The notes: generated by a model from the letters alone, not told the origin. 64,000 bases of DNA from an uncultured Acidobacteriota bacterium (GCA_963700145.1 OY969474.1:3744001-3808000); one strand, 5' to 3'. Shown: positions 3,912-23,464, counted from the stretch's first letter. Made by a program: numbers and translations.

Positions 3912-5330
3912 TCACACTAGGGCGGCAGTGCTCGACGGGTTAGTAGCAACTAGCCCTTTCCCACTCTCGACCGCCCCGCCCCCCGTGAGCGCCCGCCCGA
4001 ACCTTTCGTAGCTATCTTCAAGGTTTTGAATGCCCGGCAATATCTCGCCACCCAGCATCTTTATCAAGGCTCCGCCCGCCAAGCTCAAGTAATCAATTTC
4101 TGTTTCGCGAATTGCGAATTCTCTGAGCATAGCAGTCGTATCACCGCCACCCATCACAACGTATATTCTGTCCTTAACCTGCGGGCTTATTACAAACTCC
4201 AGAAGCTTACGTGAACCGGTATTAAAGTCTATCGATAGATCGTAGGCGCCCATCGGTCCCTTAATGTAGACCATCAGTTGCTGATCAGCATCCAGACCTT
4301 CAACTTCTCGCTGAATCACATTCTCGTAAAGGCGAACCGTTCCATCGCCGATATCGTACGCGCCGAATTCTCGCGGCACTTCTGAAACTTTGTGGACTGA
4401 ACGTGCAGAGCCGTTACTAGTGCCCGCTACATCGATCGGCAGGACAAAGGTCTTTTCATGACCTCGTAAGAGAGCCTCTACCTTTGGCAAGTAATCCAAA
4501 AGGCTCTTCCCTTTCGAATCTCGTCTCTCAAGAAGACGCCGAGTCTCGCTCCCAAGATCGTATCCCTTTGCAACAAGGCAGAGATTTGCCAGTAAACCGC
4601 CGGTCAAGATGTGTCTAACCAAGCCCTCTCGCAGCGCTCGCTCAATCAGACTGAAGTAGTCCTGAATCTTTGTACCACCGAGCATGAAAATGCTGCTAGG
4701 ATTCTCAGCCTTGAGAAAACGTGTCTTCAAAGTGTCAACCGTAGAGAGTTCTTCGTGAAGGTTGGGGCCAGCTATGTTGGGAATGTCCTGGAACCCAACC
4801 ACTGAGCGATGTGAGCGGTGAGCTATCGAGAAAGCGTCCAACACGAAGAATTCGACACCGCATTTCTCTATAAGGTCGCGTATGAAGCGAGATTTGGCGT
4901 GCTCTGAAGGAGGGAGGCTCTGTGATTCGCCGGGCAGGAATCTGAGATTCTCCAAGAGCAGCGCGGTCCCTCCCTTCATTCTGCTGATCGCCTTTATTGT
5001 ATCCTCGTTAAGGGTGTCATCGATGAATGTGTTGCCAATATAGTCGATGTCTCCTGTGATGTTCGGCCGAAGGCTTCTTTGAATGAATCCAGTTCCAATA
5101 TAACTGAGGTCGCCTGGCCGACCGTTATGAGTGCCCACGATGACTCTCGCGCCTTTCTCAAGTGCCAAGCGCCTGATCGTGCGCGCGGAACGAATGATTC
5201 GGGCGTTGGCCTGGATATCTCCATGCGCCACGGTAGTGTTTGTGTCAACGCGAAGGAAAACCACTTTATTTCGAAATACTTCGCTGCCATACAAATCTTC
5301 GATGAGGTCGATGGTCAGGTAGCGAAGCAT
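3912..5330 (-). CDS. pgk: Phosphoglycerate kinase family protein, divergent/archaeal-like, in a lower-GC insert
   Basis: RVDTN, HNGRP, LLENLRF, DAFSIAHRSH, LGGTK, YDIG, GPMG, GGGDT, GGA motifs; AGGAGG RBS before ATG 5330. Confidence 0.85.
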   Translation of the reverse strand: MLRYLTIDLIEDLYGSEVFRNKVVFLRVDTNTTVAHGDIQANARIIRSARTIRRLALEKGARVIVGTHNGRPGDLSYIGTGFIQRSLRPNITGDIDYIGNTFIDDTLNEDTIKAISRMKGGTALLLENLRFLPGESQSLPPSEHAKSRFIRDLIEKCGVEFFVLDAFSIAHRSHRSVVGFQDIPNIAGPNLHEELSTVDTLKTRFLKAENPSSIFMLGGTKIQDYFSLIERALREGLVRHILTGGLLANLCLVAKGYDLGSETRRLLERRDSKGKSLLDYLPKVEALLRGHEKTFVLPIDVAGTSNGSARSVHKVSEVPREFGAYDIGDGTVRLYENVIQREVEGLDADQQLMVYIKGPMGAYDLSIDFNTGSRKLLEFVISPQVKDRIYVVMGGGDTTAMLREFAIRETEIDYLSLAGGALIKMLGGEILPGIQNLEDSYERFGRALTGGGAVESGKGLVATNPSSTAALV

Positions 5331-5343
5331 AGAACCTCCTTGG

Positions 5344-5625
5344 TCAGGAGATTGCATTGCCCTTGGATGACAGTTGCCATGAGAGAATGTACTCGGTGGA
5401 GTCGTACCTGTGGACGGTGGATGACACCTCGAGATAGCCGTCGATCTCGAGTTCGTGTAAGAGGTGGAGAAACTCGATCTCGGTCACGGAGAACCCATGG
5501 GGTACACCGTGCTGCAGAAACTCGCGATCCGTGTCGCATCCTTCTACTAGCCGTGACTCGAATACACCAGCGACCTGGATCAACTCCAGAAGACGCAGCT
5601 TGTCGGGATCGACGAGCGTGGACAT
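5344..5625 (-). CDS. Small hypothetical protein, possibly winged-helix fold
   Basis: AGGAGG RBS; LHLLHELEIDGYL...WQLSSKG resembles a wHTH helix plus wing; lies directly upstream of the pgk-like gene. Confidence 0.6.
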   Translation of the reverse strand: MSTLVDPDKLRLLELIQVAGVFESRLVEGCDTDREFLQHGVPHGFSVTEIEFLHLLHELEIDGYLEVSSTVHRYDSTEYILSWQLSSKGNAIS

Positions 5626-9316: not shown

Positions 9317-9571
9317 GTGGAGACGACACTAGACAAGTTCGGACGAGTCGTTCTGCCAAAGCAGGTGCGGGACAGCCTCGGGCTCGAGGCTGGCTCAGTC
9401 CTGCGCATCGAGCAGGCTCCCGGGGAGATCCGCCTCACCCCCGTCGAGGAGAAGCCCTCCTTAGTCTGGCGGGATGGTCTACTCGTGTTCGTCGGCGAGA
9501 TCGAGGGGGACCTCGATGACGCGGTTCGGCGGCAGCGCGAAGAGCGCCTGAAAAAGCTCGTCCGGGGCTGA
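9317..9571 (+). CDS. AbrB/MazE/SpoVT-family antitoxin (VapB-like)
   Basis: [21 protein letters not shown] AbrB signature; directly upstream of a PIN gene. Confidence 0.9.
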
Positions 9572-9577
9572 GACGCC

Positions 9578-10012
9578 TTGAAGGTGCTCTTCGACACCTC
9601 GGTGATCGTGGCCGCCCTGGTCGCCGGGCACGTCCACCACGCGCGGGCCTCCGCCTGGCTGCGCCGGGCTCACTCACCCGAGCTGCAGCTCGTCGTGGCG
9701 ACCCACACTCTCGCCGAGCTCTACTCCGTTCTCACCGCACTACCTTCGCGGCCGCGCATCTCGCCGCGAGAAGCCTTCTCTTTGATTCAGGAGAACGTCG
9801 AGCGGCACGCGCGCCTGGTGTCGCTCTCCGAGGCCGACTACACAGCCACCTTGCGTGATCTCGCCGCGCGCTCCTTGGCGGGTGGAGTGGTCTTCGACGC
9901 CCTACTGGTGCGCGCGGCGCGCAACGCGGAAGTGGACCAGCTGCTGACGCTGAACCTGAGCGACTTCCGCAGGATCTGGCCCGAAGGGGAAGGAATCCTG
10001 ATCGAGCCCTGA
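9578..10012 (+). CDS. PIN-domain toxin (VapC-like)
   Basis: [25 protein letters not shown] acidic PIN residues. Confidence 0.92.
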
Positions 10013-10038: not shown

Positions 10039-10640
10039 CTAGACCAGGATTGCGTCCAGGACGAGTATCACCAACGTCACGACCAAGCAAACAACACCAT
10101 TCCGGATGCATCGGTAGCACCGCCTAGAGTATGTTGCGAACACCAAATTGTACGCTTGGTTGAGTTGAATGGCGTTTAGTATGACGTCCTTCAAAGAGTC
10201 GTTCACCATCACTGCATCACATGGCATTCTCGGCTGGAGGTACAAATCGTACAGCTCCTCCGGCTTGACTATTCGCAGAGCGAACCAAACGGCGCCGAGT
10301 AGATATGGCAAAGGCGCTAGGATTGCCACCCCAAGTATCCACACGGGGATCACGTGGGCGCCGCGACCGAAGAGGCCCGTTGCACCAAGTGTGAACGCAC
10401 TCATAACCGCTACCGAACCAAGAAAGGCTTGGCCTCGCCGATGCATTAGCTCCCTACGATACAGCTCCGACCGTAGCGTTCCTTTAAAGCGTCCTCCGTT
10501 AGTTGGCGGTATTTGGTCCATGAGCTGTCGAGGGGGTCTCCTTGCTCCCACTTTCTCTGTTGCGCGCTGATGCGCGCGCGGACCTGCCGGACAATAGACC
10601 GGTCGACGAAAAAGGGAAGCAACTCGTCAGCGAGCTTCAG
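10039..10640 (-). pseudogene. Membrane protein with about 3 TM segments (Pycsar-effector-like topology), apparently frameshifted near 10476
   Basis: The C-terminal frame has three hydrophobic segments. A second frame overlapping the ATP-grasp stop (LKLADELLPFFVDRSIV...LTEDALKER) joins it with one extra base. Real lesion or sequencing error. Confidence 0.6.
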
Positions 10641-11562
10641 ACGGTTCTCCCAGAAGCTCGTCTACTATGGCTTCGGAAATGCGCCCCTCGAAAACTACGT
10701 CAAGCCAACCCCATTCTCCGGTAGGATTTACCTCAAGGAACAGGTAGTCATTCCGTACGCGCGCCAAATCAATCGCACCATAGCGAAGGCCTAGGCGCCG
10801 CAACAGCGCTAAGCAGCTAGCTTTCAACGCCGGGGTGCCGTTGAACGGACGGAATGCAACCTGTTCCTTTCGTAGTCTCCAATCGCCAATGACCGGCTCA
10901 GCAGTCTCAGCAAAGAAGCACCGCTCTCCGACGACGGTGACTCGAATGTCTGTCTTGGGTTCGACGTTCTGCTGCAGAATGAGCGGCATTTCTCGACAGA
11001 AGGCTTCTGTCAACTGATCTGGTGGAAGTGCCGTGGTGTAGAAGAAGAGATCCTCTCCACCGAGGCGCAGCAAGAATGAGTCCAATGCCTTAACCGCGAT
11101 TCGCTCCGCATTCGCAAGAGAGGTAGGCAGATAGTTCGCGACAGCGGTACGTGGAACCTGGAATCCGAGAGAGTTTGCGACTGCCAGCTGGAAAGGCTTG
11201 CTCTCCGCGGCATAGGTGCTCGTAGGGTGGTTCACCCATCGCGCACGCCGAAAGACAATAAGCGACCGCGCAAAGGCGGCCCATTGGTGCCTACTGAGTA
11301 GCTCCTCTGGAGAGTATCGATGGCCGCTGCTCTCTCTTAGATGGGTTGGAGCGCGGTAGAGAATAGCTCGCGGATCGCGAACTTCGCGCGGCTCCCCGTT
11401 TGCAATTACATGCCTGAGCAGTGGCTGAAGCGGGTCAAGGAGGATTTGGTCTAATGCAAGGAGATCGAGGTCAAGGCGCCAATAAGCAACGTTACGGGAC
11501 CTGAGAACTTCGACCACCGAATCGGTGGCCAAGTCGCGCGAGTTCGTGACCAGTAAGATCAA
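10627..11562 (-). CDS. ATP-grasp ligase, MvdC/MvdD (graspetide synthetase)-like
   Basis: ILLVTNSRDLATD, WVNHP...AESKPFQL, VAVK-like IAVKAL, QQNVEPKTDIRVTVVG, DWR, GAIDL, FLEVNPTGEWGWL. Confidence 0.9.
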   Translation of the reverse strand: MILLVTNSRDLATDSVVEVLRSRNVAYWRLDLDLLALDQILLDPLQPLLRHVIANGEPREVRDPRAILYRAPTHLRESSGHRYSPEELLSRHQWAAFARSLIVFRRARWVNHPTSTYAAESKPFQLAVANSLGFQVPRTAVANYLPTSLANAERIAVKALDSFLLRLGGEDLFFYTTALPPDQLTEAFCREMPLILQQNVEPKTDIRVTVVGERCFFAETAEPVIGDWRLRKEQVAFRPFNGTPALKASCLALLRRLGLRYGAIDLARVRNDYLFLEVNPTGEWGWLDVVFEGRISEAIVDELLGEPSEAR

Positions 11563-11571
11563 TGGAGTGAA

Positions 11572-11772
11572 TCACGGCCCTTTCATGTCTTCTCCTGTCT
11601 CGTGATCGCACTTCTTGGACGCGGGCGGCCGTCGTAGCAGGCCTTGCCCTTCTGCCATAGTGCCAGGCTCCGGCTGCCAAGCACCGATACGCCTGCAATA
11701 GCGCCAGCCTTCCGGCTCAGGATCAGTAGCGTTAGGAAATCTGGCGCTCAGTTCGATTAACAAGTGGCTCAT
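11572..11772 (-). CDS. Putative graspetide (RiPP) precursor peptide
   Basis: 66 aa ORF ending 9 nt before the ATP-grasp start; GGAG RBS; C-terminal core SKKCDHETGEDMKG has Ser/Thr/Lys nucleophiles and Asp/Glu acceptors. Confidence 0.8.
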   Translation of the reverse strand: MSHLLIELSARFPNATDPEPEGWRYCRRIGAWQPEPGTMAEGQGLLRRPPASKKCDHETGEDMKGP

Positions 11773-11784
11773 GGCTGACCGCTC

Positions 11785-11901
11785 CTATTTCCCGAGACTT
11801 CGGTACAGGATCTTAGGACGGGCAAGCATTGTGACGATGCACTCAACTCCGCGCGAGCTCAGTAACTCGATGAACTCTCTCAAGTCTTTCTGCAGACTCA
11901 C
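11785..11901 (-). pseudogene. Truncated nucleotidyltransferase (MNT-like) N-terminus
   Basis: GTG-started MSLQKDLREFIELLSSRGVECIV resembles the N-terminus DLREFIELLNxxxVEYLVVGG, then breaks off into low-GC sequence. Confidence 0.6.
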
Positions 11902-19376: not shown

Positions 19377-20867
19377 ATGCCCAATGACGACACCGTGCGG
19401 TTCGCCGGTTTTCCGACGGCCTTCGTACACGAGACACCGAAGGGAAAGAAGATCCAGCAGCTCCTCTGGGGTGACTTCCTCCGGCTCCTGGGCGGCAAGG
19501 AGGGCGAGTGGGTCGAGGTGCGGGCGCGGGGGCAGAATGGCTGGATGCGGGAGGAGGATCTCCAAGAGGAGCGACTCCTCGAAGTGAACTTCGTGGACAT
19601 CGGCCAGGGGGACGGCTGCTTCATTGTCACGCCCGACGATCGTTTCCTGGTGATCGACGCAGGCGAGTCGGACAACATGTACCGGTTCCTCCGCTGGCGG
19701 TTCAACCTGCGCGCCCATCCCGACCAGGAGGTCGCCTGCGACACGGCCATCGTCACCCACCCCGATGCGGACCATTACAAGGGGTTCCAGCAGCTCTTCG
19801 ACTCGCCCCTCCTCCGCTTCGACGCCGTGTACCACAACGGCCTCGTCGAGCGGGTCGGCGACGACGTCCTAGGCGCCAAGAAGAAGGAGGGAAAGCTCTC
19901 ATACATGACGGAGCTGGTACCTGACCAAACTGCCCTCGACGCCATCATCGGCGACCCGGCCCTGGTGGGAAAGAAGCTCTATCCGCGTCTCTTGCGGACG
20001 GCCGCGACGAGCGGGCGGGTCGGACCCATCCGCTCCCTTTCGGTCGGCGACGAGTTTCTGCCGGGTTACGACGGCAGCGACGGAAGTGGACTGTCTTTTC
20101 GCGTTCTCGCTCCTGTCCCGGAAGTCGTGGACGGCAAGCCCGCGCTCCGCTGGTTGGGGGACGTGGGCAAGACGAAGAACGGCCATTCGGTCGTTCTCCT
20201 GCTGCGCTACCGCGACGTGCGGATTCTCCTCGGCGGCGATCTCAATATTCCGGCGGAGAACTACCTGCTGGCGCACTACACGGGACTGGATCCCGAGACA
20301 GACGACCCTGTCGAGCGCGAGGAGCTGGTTGCGAAGGCGCGGGAGGTTTTCGAAGCCGACGTCGCCAAGGCCTGCCACCACGGCAGTGCCGACTTCAACT
20401 CGCTCTACCTACGGGCGGTCAACCCGCTGGCTACTGTGATCTCGAGTGGCGACGGCGAGCCGCACTGCCATCCGCGGCCCGACGCCCTAGGCACTTTCGG
20501 CAAGCACGGCCGGGGCGACCGGCCCCTGATCTTCTCGACGGAGCTGGCACGTTCGAGCAAGGAGACCATCAAGGAACCCAACCGGGTGCGTGCCGAGATT
20601 CGCGCCCTCATGGAGAAGCGGGACCTGGAGGAGGACATCGACAAGCGCGCCGCGCTCCAGGAGAAGATCAACGAGAAGCTCGGCGTCCTCGAGCGCAGCG
20701 TCGCCGTCTACGGCATGATCAACGTGCGCACCGACGGCCGCGAGGTCCTGCTGGCCCAGAGGCTCGAGGAGCCGCGCTCCGGCACCGGTGAACGTTGGGA
20801 CGTACACGCCCTCACGCGCGACCCGCAGACCGGCGAGCTGCGCTATCGCTCCAAGCACGAGGGCTGA
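19377..20867 (+). CDS. ComEC/Rec2-like MBL-fold hydrolase with N-terminal SH3-like domain
   Basis: FVDIGQGDG, IDAG, THPDADHYKG, N.HSVV, LLGGDL, KACHHGS, VISSG...HCHP; N-terminal WVEVRARGQNGWM. Confidence 0.85.
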   Translation: MPNDDTVRFAGFPTAFVHETPKGKKIQQLLWGDFLRLLGGKEGEWVEVRARGQNGWMREEDLQEERLLEVNFVDIGQGDGCFIVTPDDRFLVIDAGESDNMYRFLRWRFNLRAHPDQEVACDTAIVTHPDADHYKGFQQLFDSPLLRFDAVYHNGLVERVGDDVLGAKKKEGKLSYMTELVPDQTALDAIIGDPALVGKKLYPRLLRTAATSGRVGPIRSLSVGDEFLPGYDGSDGSGLSFRVLAPVPEVVDGKPALRWLGDVGKTKNGHSVVLLLRYRDVRILLGGDLNIPAENYLLAHYTGLDPETDDPVEREELVAKAREVFEADVAKACHHGSADFNSLYLRAVNPLATVISSGDGEPHCHPRPDALGTFGKHGRGDRPLIFSTELARSSKETIKEPNRVRAEIRALMEKRDLEEDIDKRAALQEKINEKLGVLERSVAVYGMINVRTDGREVLLAQRLEEPRSGTGERWDVHALTRDPQTGELRYRSKHEG

Positions 20868-20911
20868 GATGGCCGACTCCGGGCTCGCGAAGGCGTGCCG
20901 CCGAGAGCTAG

Positions 20912-22181
20912 CAGGCCGCTGAGAAACGGCCTTCAACGGCGGGTGCGAGGCTGACAGCGATCTGGGAGCGGGCGATGTCGCGTGCGCGGGTGGAAGGGGA
21001 GGGCAACAGGCGCCTTGTGGGCGCGTTTGAGCGCCGCTGGTTTTGCTGGGCAGGACCTTTTTGGGCTATGCCGGCACGAGCAGGCGACTTAATCGGAGCA
21101 GGTTGTACGCTGCGGCGGCGAGGCGGGCGGCCAGCTGCGTCCTCGCCACGCCTCGGACCCTGGTCCGGTGCAGCCCTGCGCAGGTCTTGAGCCAGCCGAA
21201 GATCGTCTCGATTCGCCGCCGTACGACCTGACTGATCCGGTAGCCGGGACGGCGCGTTGTTCGCCGGTCGATTGCCGAGCGCCTGCGCCGGTGGGCATTC
21301 TGGGTGACGTGGGGGGTGACGCCGAGCTCTCGGCAGGCAGCCACGAAGCCCTTGGTGTCGTAGCTCTTATCGGCGCCCACCGTCTTGCGCCGCGAGCCTT
21401 CGAGCCGCGCGAGCAGACCCAGAGCTTCGCGACGCTCGGCGAACCCATCGGCCTGGGCCACCACGAAGTCCACCAACAATCCGTTGCGGTTCTCCATCAG
21501 AGCGTGGCCGGAAAACGAGAGCTTCGCCTCGTGCCCATCCCCCTTGCGGGCCAGGCGCGCTTCCGGGTCGGTCGTCGAGGCGTGCGTCTCGTTGCTCCGC
21601 TTCGTCCCCGTGAAATCGCTCCAGCCGTTGGCGTCTCCGCCCGGTGGCCCGTCCTTGGGCCGGAAGCTCTTCATCGACGCCCAGGCCTCGATCAGCGTCC
21701 CATCCACCGAGAAGTGCTCGCTCGACAGCAGCCGCTGCACGCTCGCCTCAGCCACGATCGCCGCCAAAAACCGCTCGGCCACCTCGTGCCGGATCAGCCG
21801 CTCCCGGTTGCGTGAAAACGTGCTCGCGTCAAACGACGGCTCGTCGAGCTCCAGATCCAAAAACCAGCGAAACAGCAGGTTGTACTCGAGCTGCTCGCAA
21901 AACTGCCGGTCGCTCCGCACCGAAAACAGCGCGATCAGCAGCTGCGCCTTGAGCAGCCGCTCCGGCGGCACCGACGGCCGCCCCGTCTCGGCGTACATCA
22001 CCGCAAACACCTCACTCAACTGCCCGAGAGCCCGGTCGGCCAGCCCCTTGATCCGCCGGATCGGATGCGCCGCCGGAATCCGCTCCTCCAACGACCCCAC
22101 CATCAACAACGTCCTCTGCTCGCGCGCTTTCCCTCGCATGGCCTGCAAGGGTAGCGCGAACCGGGGTTTTTCAGCAGCCTG
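20912..22181 (-). mobile_element. IS5-family insertion sequence, complete
   Basis: Imperfect TIRs CAGGCCGCTGAGAAAC / CAGGCTGCTGAAAAAC; CTAG direct repeats at 20908-20911 and 22182-22185. Confidence 0.92.
21066..22140 (-). CDS. IS5-family DDE transposase
   Basis: GRPSVPPERLLKA, YNLLFRWF, FSVDGTLIEAWAS, GADKSYD, RRRIETIFGWLK. Confidence 0.95.
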
Positions 22182-22314
22182 CTAGAGCTCGGTCCGTTTT
22201 CAAGGCTCCCAACTTTGCCCGCAACTTCCGGATAGCTCGCTGAATGGTCGCCACGTAATCTTCCGAGCGTGTGGCGCGCTGGTCAACGGACATGCCGCAC
22301 CCGAGGAGGACCGC

Positions 22315-22791
22315 ATGACTTCGTTCCGTGTCGTCGCCATCGATACTTCCATCGCCGAGTCGGTCCGCAGCACGCTGCGGTCGCCGCGGTACGGGCACCC
22401 GGCTCATACCGAGATCGCGACGGGGTACGGGCCCTGCCGGCACTGCCTGCGCACCTTCCGTGTCGGCGCCGAGGCGCGCATCCTGTTCACGTACGACCCT
22501 TTCGAGGGCGTGGAAAAGCTGCCGCTGCCGGGACCGGTCTTCGTGCACGCCGAGGCGTGCGAGCGCTACCCCGAGGACAGCGGCTTCCCCGGCGATCTGC
22601 GGCCGCACGCGCTGACGCTCAACGCCTACGCCCGCGGCCGCCGGCTACGGGCGCAGGAGTACGTGGCGGACGGCGAGGTGGATGCCGCTCTCGAGCGGCT
22701 CCTCGCCCGGCCCGAGATCGACTACGTCCACGTCCGCGACACCGCGGCGGGCTGCTACGACCTGCGCGTGCAGCGCGCGAGCGCGAGCTAA
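22315..22791 (+). CDS. DUF1203 family protein
   Basis: PCRHCL, GPVFVHAEAC, YVHVRDTAAGCY. Confidence 0.85.
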   Translation: MTSFRVVAIDTSIAESVRSTLRSPRYGHPAHTEIATGYGPCRHCLRTFRVGAEARILFTYDPFEGVEKLPLPGPVFVHAEACERYPEDSGFPGDLRPHALTLNAYARGRRLRAQEYVADGEVDAALERLLARPEIDYVHVRDTAAGCYDLRVQRASAS

Positions 22792-22799
22792 GTCCTCCC

Positions 22800-23144
22800 C
22801 TAGAGGGGCAGGAAGAGCAGCGAATCGACGAAGTCCTCCGGCTCTCCTGCGTTCGCTACCAGCTCCAGTCCCTCCACGCAGCGGCCGATCGGCAGCTTCT
22901 GTGAGGCGTAAATCACCCCGGTAAAGCGCACGCCGACGCGCTGTCGTCGCCGGGCTTCGATGACCAGATCTCTGTCGGTCGAGAACAGGACTCGGCCCAG
23001 CGACGTTGCCCTGTCGAGCAGCTCAGAGTCGCTCAACCGGTGCGCCCGGTCCTCGAAAGCGGTGAGTAGATCGACCCCGCGGAGCCGGAGGCCCTGGGTC
23101 ACGGCGCGGTTGACGTTGTGATTGAAGTAGAGGCTGACCGGCAA
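22800..23144 (-). CDS. DUF5615 PIN-like toxin
   Basis: YFNHNV...LRLRGVDLLT, SDSELL, GRVLFSTDRDL; downstream of a DUF433 gene. Confidence 0.82.
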   Translation of the reverse strand: MPVSLYFNHNVNRAVTQGLRLRGVDLLTAFEDRAHRLSDSELLDRATSLGRVLFSTDRDLVIEARRRQRVGVRFTGVIYASQKLPIGRCVEGLELVANAGEPEDFVDSLLFLPL

Positions 23145-23146
23145 GG

Positions 23147-23464
23147 TCAGATCTGCCCCTGCGCTCGCAGCTTGCCGATGAGAGGGTGTTCTCCGACTTC
23201 GCGCCGGATCTCTTCGACCTGTGCCTCACGCCGCTCGAGGTTCGCCTCGATCTCTTCCTGGTGGTCCCAGTAGTACGCGAGCGCCGAATGCACCTGCCCT
23301 AGCGTCAGGTGCGGATGCTGGTACGCCAGCTCCTCGGGGCTCCAGCCGTGCACCTGGACCTCCTCGACGAGCTCGAACACCTTGGTGTTGGCGCCCTCGA
23401 TCCAGGCAACCCCCTCTTCGTCCAAGACGATGTGCTCGTACGTTGTGCGCGTGGCGGCGATCAT
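23147..23464 (-). CDS. DUF433 antitoxin
   Basis: IEGANTKV...GWSPEEL...HLTLGQVHSALAYY. Confidence 0.88.
   Translation of the reverse strand: MIAATRTTYEHIVLDEEGVAWIEGANTKVFELVEEVQVHGWSPEELAYQHPHLTLGQVHSALAYYWDHQEEIEANLERREAQVEEIRREVGEHPLIGKLRAQGQI

Follow-up and report, generated by a model that had tools for sequence, protein, structure and literature searches.

A low-GC graspetide cassette with a distantly PycTM-like membrane gene, a candidate mobile anti-phage system

Three adjoining genes, all on the minus strand, make up a cassette of ~1.8 kb in the window (the whole 64-kb stretch of DNA that was analysed): a peptide, an ATP-grasp ligase, and a transmembrane (TM) gene. The cassette and its flanks contain the following features, where L001 denotes the closest related locus.

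9317..9571, plus strand: AbrB/MazE-type antitoxin gene in the flank (PF04014, E 2.4e-9; TIGR01439)
9578..10012, plus strand: PIN-domain VapC-like toxin gene in the flank, convergent with the cassette (PF01850, E 7e-10)
10039..10640, minus strand: gene for a PycTM-like membrane protein with three TM segments, frameshifted at ~10479, in pieces 10446-10640 and 10039-10479
10627..11562, minus strand: ATP-grasp graspetide ligase gene, 311 aa, intact (NCBIfam models)
11572..11772, minus strand: group 7 graspetide precursor gene, 66 aa, encoding a leader (HxL...P.G..Y...G.W) and a C-terminal core
11575..11619, minus strand: core peptide, S52-P66, part of the precursor
11833..11901, minus strand: start (~22 codons) of a DUF6036-like nucleotidyltransferase gene that is otherwise deleted relative to L001
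11843..12037, minus strand: 64-aa ORF upstream of the nucleotidyltransferase remnant, without a family match

A preliminary description of this DNA had noted three tightly packed genes of low GC, and the cassette is indeed composed in that way: its genes have a GC of 0.55-0.59 and a GC3 of 0.59-0.68, against 0.71-0.77 and 0.95-0.96 for purF and gnd. Also as described, no protease, ABC exporter or regulator adjoins the cassette in the window, and att-like repeats, terminal repeats and a sigma-70-like promoter were not found at it. L001 lies in a Thermoanaerobaculia MAG, is 89-96% identical to the window at the nucleotide level, and carries the cassette in the same place, with purF and vapC on either side; it retains a whole 155-aa nucleotidyltransferase and an intact 200-aa TM protein. 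Toxin-antitoxin (TA) modules were said to flank the cassette, which is correct for the AbrB/MazE and PIN pair (9317-10012) but not for the other side, occupied by the 64-aa ORF and the nucleotidyltransferase remnant; as only ~22 codons of the latter are left, the module on that flank was TA-like at most and has been deleted in the window. The corresponding DUF6036/AbiEii-like nucleotidyltransferase gene of L001 (5871-6338) is nearly all missing from the window, with its 64-aa partner kept.

The TM gene starts at ~10640, overlapping the end of the ligase gene, and relative to L001 it lacks one base at ~10479. The 170-aa ORF at 10039-10551 was considered as the true protein and rejected, because the comparison with L001 gives a frameshifted longer gene. 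The gap is the sole frameshifting one in protein-coding genes over the ~6.2 kb aligned with L001. The TM gene was under purifying selection: its dN/dS against L001 is 0.17 overall, 0.18 before the break and 0.17 after it, and since the ratio is low on both sides, the break either happened recently or was introduced by assembly. Sequencing error aside, the copy in the window is probably inactive, a pseudogenised example.

Peptide and ligase belong to a known class, the group 7 (marinomonasin-type) graspetide precursors with their ATP-grasp ligases. The precursor has the 66 residues first assigned to it, but its C-terminus reads ...GEDMKGP and thus extends one residue beyond the first reading. 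The core, SKKCDHETGEDMKGP, fits the cluster171/gr_07 consensus and the motif [TS]KKxDxETGEDxKG; across all six frames, the window has the strict motif a single time, and a looser version was absent from 100 kb of E. coli control DNA. Donors in the core are S, K, K, T, and K, and acceptors D, E, E, and D; by analogy with homologues, and leaving connectivity aside, three cross-links are expected. The leader matches HxL...P...Y...G.W, with H3, G30, and W32 conserved across 67 precursors (profile match E 4e-15), and the microviridin-type PFFARFL leader is absent both from the window precursor and from the 67-sequence consensus. The window precursor is 42% identical to that of Marinomonas fungiae (L014), reportedly the source of the tricyclic marinomonasin. 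In the tables of Makarova et al. (2022), cluster171 is equivalent to the group 7 of Lee et al. (2020), and its members include M. fungiae JCM 18476 (PMC8939145), the locus of which is L014 among the relatives found here. A further study reports three dehydrations for the group 7 peptide Gra-3 and for marinomonasin, and cyclisation of group 7 peptides when expressed heterologously (PMC9576775); carried over from these homologues, macrolactone/macrolactam formation would be predicted for the window core. The chemistry of graspetide groups 3-7 is known, and the literature searched assigns them no biological role.

The ligase had been called MvdC/D-type. It matched TIGR04187 best (E 3.6e-51), followed by MvdC (1.4e-36) and MvdD (1.1e-28), with all three models below their own cut-offs, and the best structure matches to the ligase family profile are solved graspetide ligases (AMdnB, MdnB/C-type, and CdnC); given the order of the models and their cut-offs, the protein counts as a graspetide ligase without being orthologous to MvdC/D. 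Peptide and ligase genes share a frame in the window, and a stop codon separates the two in all 83 precursors. Their dN/dS values between the window and L001 are 0.21 and 0.15, respectively. Two tandem precursors are present in 5/80 loci (L015, L022, L063, L066, and L068), and the ligase of the L001/window lineage sits on a long branch (1.81).

Relatives were collected by a ligase-profile scan of GTDB genomes, with one genome per species; the best 80 of 363 loci were kept, and genes were called with our own simple caller, which will miss some. The preliminary description had proposed looking for KKxDxETGEDxKG peptides beside ATP-grasps and asking how often the TM gene accompanies them. Within these best 80 of 363, a core-motif peptide lies upstream of the ligase in 79, and at the one locus without it the DNA ahead of the ligase is only 3 bp long. 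In 79, too, the gene that immediately follows the ligase belongs to the same 3-TM family, the exception being L057, where an IS110 element takes the place of the TM gene. Homologous loci therefore do not usually lack the TM gene; the peptide, ligase, and TM gene are an obligate unit. The TM start codon falls between -30 and +60 nt from the ligase stop in 77 of the 79 loci. Hosts of the best 80 of 363 carry 16 phylum labels (quick tree), Methanobacteriota among them. Ligase and TM distances correlate across 75 loci (Mantel rho 0.53, against a maximum of 0.07 in 999 permutations), and 28 of 39 supported ligase splits were found again in the TM tree, at most one being recovered in 200 shuffles; in part, this agreement is due to shared descent of the hosts. 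Among the 150 TM-profile matches listed there is one ligase-TM fusion, P0199 (599 aa), which could be a stop-codon accident, and one TM protein with a C-terminal SNase (nuclease) domain, P0258. No longer TM fusion was found among 8000 candidates of 551-2000 aa, which is weak evidence since that search also missed the 599-aa P0199.

The cassette is mobile in its settings, which include plasmids, ICE-like regions, and transposon regions. On plasmids, all nine peptide matches were in records that also have the ligase, eight of them also having the TM gene. Where enough flank was available, the GC of the cassette was more than 3 points under that of the flanks in 58/70 loci and above it in one. 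The L076 TM query gave no match in plasmids or phages, nor did the L004 TM query in plasmids. A Xenorhabdus query against E. coli genomes gave just a 40-nt match in 20/5426, which at this sensitivity is no sign of the cassette.

The same TM family reaches beyond group 7. A phage scaffold and four plasmid loci (L089-L093) have multi-repeat, thuringinin-type precursors, and in all five a TM gene of this family comes right after the ligase (HMM E 1e-8 to 2e-15; hhalign probability 97%, E 8e-11). A TM-anchored plasmid search gave five records, each with the TM gene beside a ligase, and the many Streptomyces and Nostoc ligase plasmids among 57 records had no match to that TM query. In Makarova et al. 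(2022), the cluster 18 membrane protein is described as thuringinin-specific and uncharacterised, with a role in peptide transport suggested, and cluster 40 is given without explanation (PMC8939145). The thuringinin-branch loci resemble the cassette in having the order precursor, ligase, and membrane gene without known transporters, and the TM gene is a possible counterpart of cluster 18 or 40; they differ in their multi-repeat cores and in the transport reading given to their membrane protein by Makarova et al.

Hydropathy places three TM segments in the family, at ~72-90, 98-123, and 178-198 (L001 numbering), and the AF2 model is all-helical (pLDDT 92, pTM 0.86). Conserved K69, N161, N165, R168, R180, and N181 are on the K/R-rich side of the protein; by the positive-inside rule, the K/R-rich region before TM1 and the TM2-TM3 loop, with their conserved polar residues, are placed in the cytoplasm. 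The family is large: at 50% identity, its profile matches 978 clusters (E up to 1e-10). The L001 protein (L001 7620-8222) and the window gene read HRRGQ where the family motif has EDKAK and are without R168/N170, and their lineage is possibly a diverged subtype. Many Bacillota members have ~80 additional C-terminal residues, predicted to lie outside the cell.

The preliminary description had drawn an analogy with a Pycsar effector, and the support found for it is independent but weak. PADLOC PycTM models were the most frequent match to the family, at E 0.002-0.15 in 8/71 members, four of which cover most of the profile, and none of 22 unrelated membrane proteins used as controls matched those models. 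Features in the ESM Atlas gave 0.94 and 0.92 to clusters in which just 11-13% of members are PycTM, and structures there gave TM-scores of 0.60 and 0.58 to Pycsar-effector clusters; small helical bundles readily give TM-scores of 0.5-0.6. On the other hand, the family falls below the Pfam cut-off: PF18967 (PycTM) is absent among the 25 families listed of 53 for the 71 TM members. Neither the window TM fragment nor L001 had a PycTM match in PADLOC or Pfam, and a sequence search of solved structures with the TM profile gave nothing under E 0.27. Foldseek (PDB and viral libraries) and VIA-align returned generic helical bundles, the best with Z 9.2 and an rmsd of 3.2 A over 147 residues; as this is within the noise for helical proteins, the fold is shown to be neither different nor new. 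Taken on sequence profiles and models, the relationship to PycTM is probably one of distant homology rather than membership. PycTM is reported to disrupt the inner membrane, and a preprint presents PucTM as a hexameric 3-TM channel, ~15 A wide at its centre, with an abortive-infection phenotype.

Genes beside the cassette were scanned with Pfam, covering 144/146 first and 102/138 second neighbours after removal of near-duplicates, fragments, and most of the genes that PADLOC had matched. These 246 neighbours include no ABC exporter, MFS transporter, C39 peptidase or GNAT, and hydrolases appear only sporadically; the exporter or C39 peptidase that would have spoken against the original proposal was thus not seen among them. 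A crude count of ABC motifs found five proteins in 4/80 loci, none adjacent to the cassette. A hydrophobic N-terminus was seen in 0/67 precursors, and G[GA] occurs in 35/83 leaders at no conserved position. Carter et al. describe group 7 clusters as often having an acetyltransferase or drug-efflux transporter (PMC13097080); neither was encountered in the best 80 of 363 loci, and a term search of the supplements to that paper returned no rows on this point. Because no exporter, signal peptide or dedicated protease accompanies the cassette, its product would be expected to stay cytoplasmic.

Co-occurrence with defence islands had also been proposed for examination, and the surroundings are enriched accordingly. 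PADLOC (E up to 1e-10) matched 29/129 second neighbours (the 138 minus nine near-duplicates or fragments) and 11/124 control genes (p 0.003), and with a 50% coverage filter, 21 second neighbours and two controls (p 3e-5). Of the controls, 43 were from the window and 81 from two E. coli K-12 stretches picked in advance; as these are ordinary chromosome, the enrichment shows residence in islands without telling defence apart from mobile cargo of other kinds. By hand labels within two genes of the cassette, defence or TA genes are present in 31/77 loci, mobility genes in 23, and either in 45; no recognised defence gene lies that close in 46/77. The neighbours include type I and IIG restriction-modification (RM), Thoeris, Gabija, Druantia, Hachiman, and AbiE genes, and SIR2 on plasmids. 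At L020 (10128-11212) and L070/L073 (5255-14964), the cassette is beside TIR, Nmad2, and 5-hmdU-kinase-helical genes, a recurring cluster of nucleotide-modification type.

We hold it slightly better than an even bet that the cassette is a mobile three-gene system against phage, of the abortive-infection type, whose PycTM-like pore is controlled by a cyclic peptide inside the cell in place of a nucleotide signal. The ligase would bind the leader and cross-link the C-terminal core of the precursor, as shown for group 7 homologues, and the cyclised product would be retained in the cytoplasm. The 3-TM protein, as a distant PycTM/pJV1-SpdB3 member, would probably be an oligomeric inner-membrane pore like PucTM, and its conserved polar cytoplasmic residues may form the site through which it is controlled by the cyclic peptide, either by itself or together with the ligase. 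Two versions can be envisaged. Infection may lead to maturation or release of the core, e.g., by a phage or host protease, and thereby open the pore; or the peptide may hold the pore shut until infection depletes it. We lean mildly to the former, activating version. Two loci keep an intact TM frame without a functional ligase: L083, whose ligase is interrupted by IS66, and L086, where other DNA stands in for the peptide and most of the ligase. Unless the insertions are polar, they count against the latter, guard version and against a constitutive toxin. Conversely, the window, L010, L057, and L087 have an intact ligase but a missing or broken TM gene, and at L081 both genes are damaged; selection of the best 80 loci on ligase similarity skews them to intact ligases.

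That pattern of decay bears on a distinctly improbable alternative, in which the modified peptide neutralises a TM protein that acts as a constitutive membrane toxin, the module stabilising its mobile element with or without a role against phage. Loss of the TM gene with the ligase kept in the four loci just named would be expected of such an addiction module, as would its residence on plasmids and in ICE-like and transposon regions with TA pairs at its flanks, but the skew of the sample to intact ligases weakens the first of these points. Plasmid loci L083 and L086, where the TM frame is intact after disruption of the ligase, argue against the strict TA-like version put forward originally, even if the upstream insertions there may be polar; moreover, a protease-resistant macrocycle would make a poor unstable antitoxin. 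The same tolerated orphan TM genes sit comfortably with the main rival, which we nevertheless consider unlikely: a bioactive graspetide (a protease inhibitor, antimicrobial or signal) would be secreted, with the TM protein as its dedicated export channel or as a factor for self-immunity, and the islands would simply hold the cassette as ordinary mobile cargo. Strict linkage without another transporter fits this rival equally well, cores as unlike as those of group 7 and the multi-core types go with one TM family, the channel reported for the PucTM hexamer is wide, and transport is what Makarova et al. proposed for the membrane protein of the thuringinin locus (PMC8939145). Such a pathway, however, would lack an energy-coupling partner and, in diderm hosts, a step across the outer membrane, and neither a protease nor a conserved site of leader cleavage was seen; of the named families, the closest to the TM protein is one of defence effectors and not of transporters, and the RM, Thoeris, Gabija, Druantia, Hachiman, and AbiE neighbours also speak against it.

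Very improbable, in our estimation, is a non-immune membrane scaffold or receptor that anchors the ligase, senses a peptide signal or aids spread of the element. The fusion P0199, the additional C-terminal domain of Bacillota members, and the nuclease domain of P0258 would suit such a protein, and the family name pJV1-spdB3 points to plasmid spread genes, spread being the function of pJV1 SpdB proteins. Yet the operon is without a regulator or output domain, and the enrichment of defence genes would be left unexplained. Group 7 peptides were, in addition, cyclised heterologously, possibly without the TM gene (PMC9576775).

Signal control of a membrane effector by a peptide that stays inside the cell, the overall reading of the preliminary description, thus gains from the linkage, the lack of an exporter, the likeness to PycTM, and the islands, but the window TM gene is broken and the peptide-ligase pair had already been described. 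Group 7 graspetides (cluster171, marinomonasin, and Gra-3) have the same leader/core consensus and the same ligase branch as the window; the literature on them, as far as its searched text extends, gives no function for them and ties the downstream TM gene neither to PycTM nor to defence; in the window, that gene is frameshifted. In that literature, the membrane gene of graspetide clusters was left uncharacterised or taken as a possible transporter. Microviridin-type exported graspetide clusters have the PFFARFL leader, absent from the window precursor and the 67-sequence consensus, and a linked ABC/C39 exporter, absent among the 246 neighbours; such clusters also carry GNAT. The peptide chemistry was already known, and its pairing with a putative Pycsar-like effector in defence islands is well supported.

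Pycsar and Pucsar TM systems share with the cassette a small 3-TM helical protein, a cytosolic helical region, and a defence-island setting. They pair the TM protein with a cNMP cyclase, whereas the window cassette has a RiPP precursor and ligase, and the cassette TM family lies below the Pfam PycTM cut-off; no nucleotide cyclase was found in the window flanks or among the 144 + 102 neighbours. Panoptes and Hailong guards are alike in being minimal operons with an enzyme-made ligand and a membrane effector, but use cyclic nucleotide or ssDNA ligands and polymerases where the cassette has an ATP-grasp ligase; repression by ligand of the Panoptes/Hailong type is also disfavoured here by the orphan TM genes at L083/L086, unless the insertions upstream of them are polar. 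Lanthiphages, according to their abstract, are RiPP clusters situated alongside defence systems and able to protect against phage; they differ in chemistry and in coming from Actinobacteria, the abstract mentions no PycTM-like effector, and the window cassette has no lanthipeptide synthetase. No link of graspetides with PycTM or phage defence was found in the literature searched, two papers on the discovery of defence systems included; subscription journals, newer DefenseFinder models, and supplements could hold one. Also cited are 10.64898/2026.08.12.744502, PMC11224242, PMC13712596, PMC13069673, 10.1101/2025.01.08.631966, PMC9225448, PMC10727000, and 10.1101/2024.06.26.600839.

If the defence reading holds, signal-effector immunity would be widened from nucleotides to cyclic peptides, and the missing exporters and proteases of these clusters would be accounted for. 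A bolder generalisation, to which we give somewhat less than even weight, is that the whole graspetide branch, group 7 together with the multi-core thuringinin-type loci, consists of immune systems and not of secreted natural-product pathways, the cyclised peptide serving as signal or lock for a Pycsar-family pore; if true, a peptide second messenger would operate in prokaryotic immunity across bacteria and archaea.

Elsewhere in the window there are two further patches. One of low GC (0.51-0.55), at 3912-5625 on the minus strand, encodes a divergent phosphoglycerate kinase (PF00162, E 6e-67, GC3 0.55) and a 93-aa ORF without a family. The other, at 19377-23464, is another small island with a DDE transposase, a DUF433/DUF5615 pair, and a protein of SH3 and metallo-beta-lactamase folds with a weak LmuA match.
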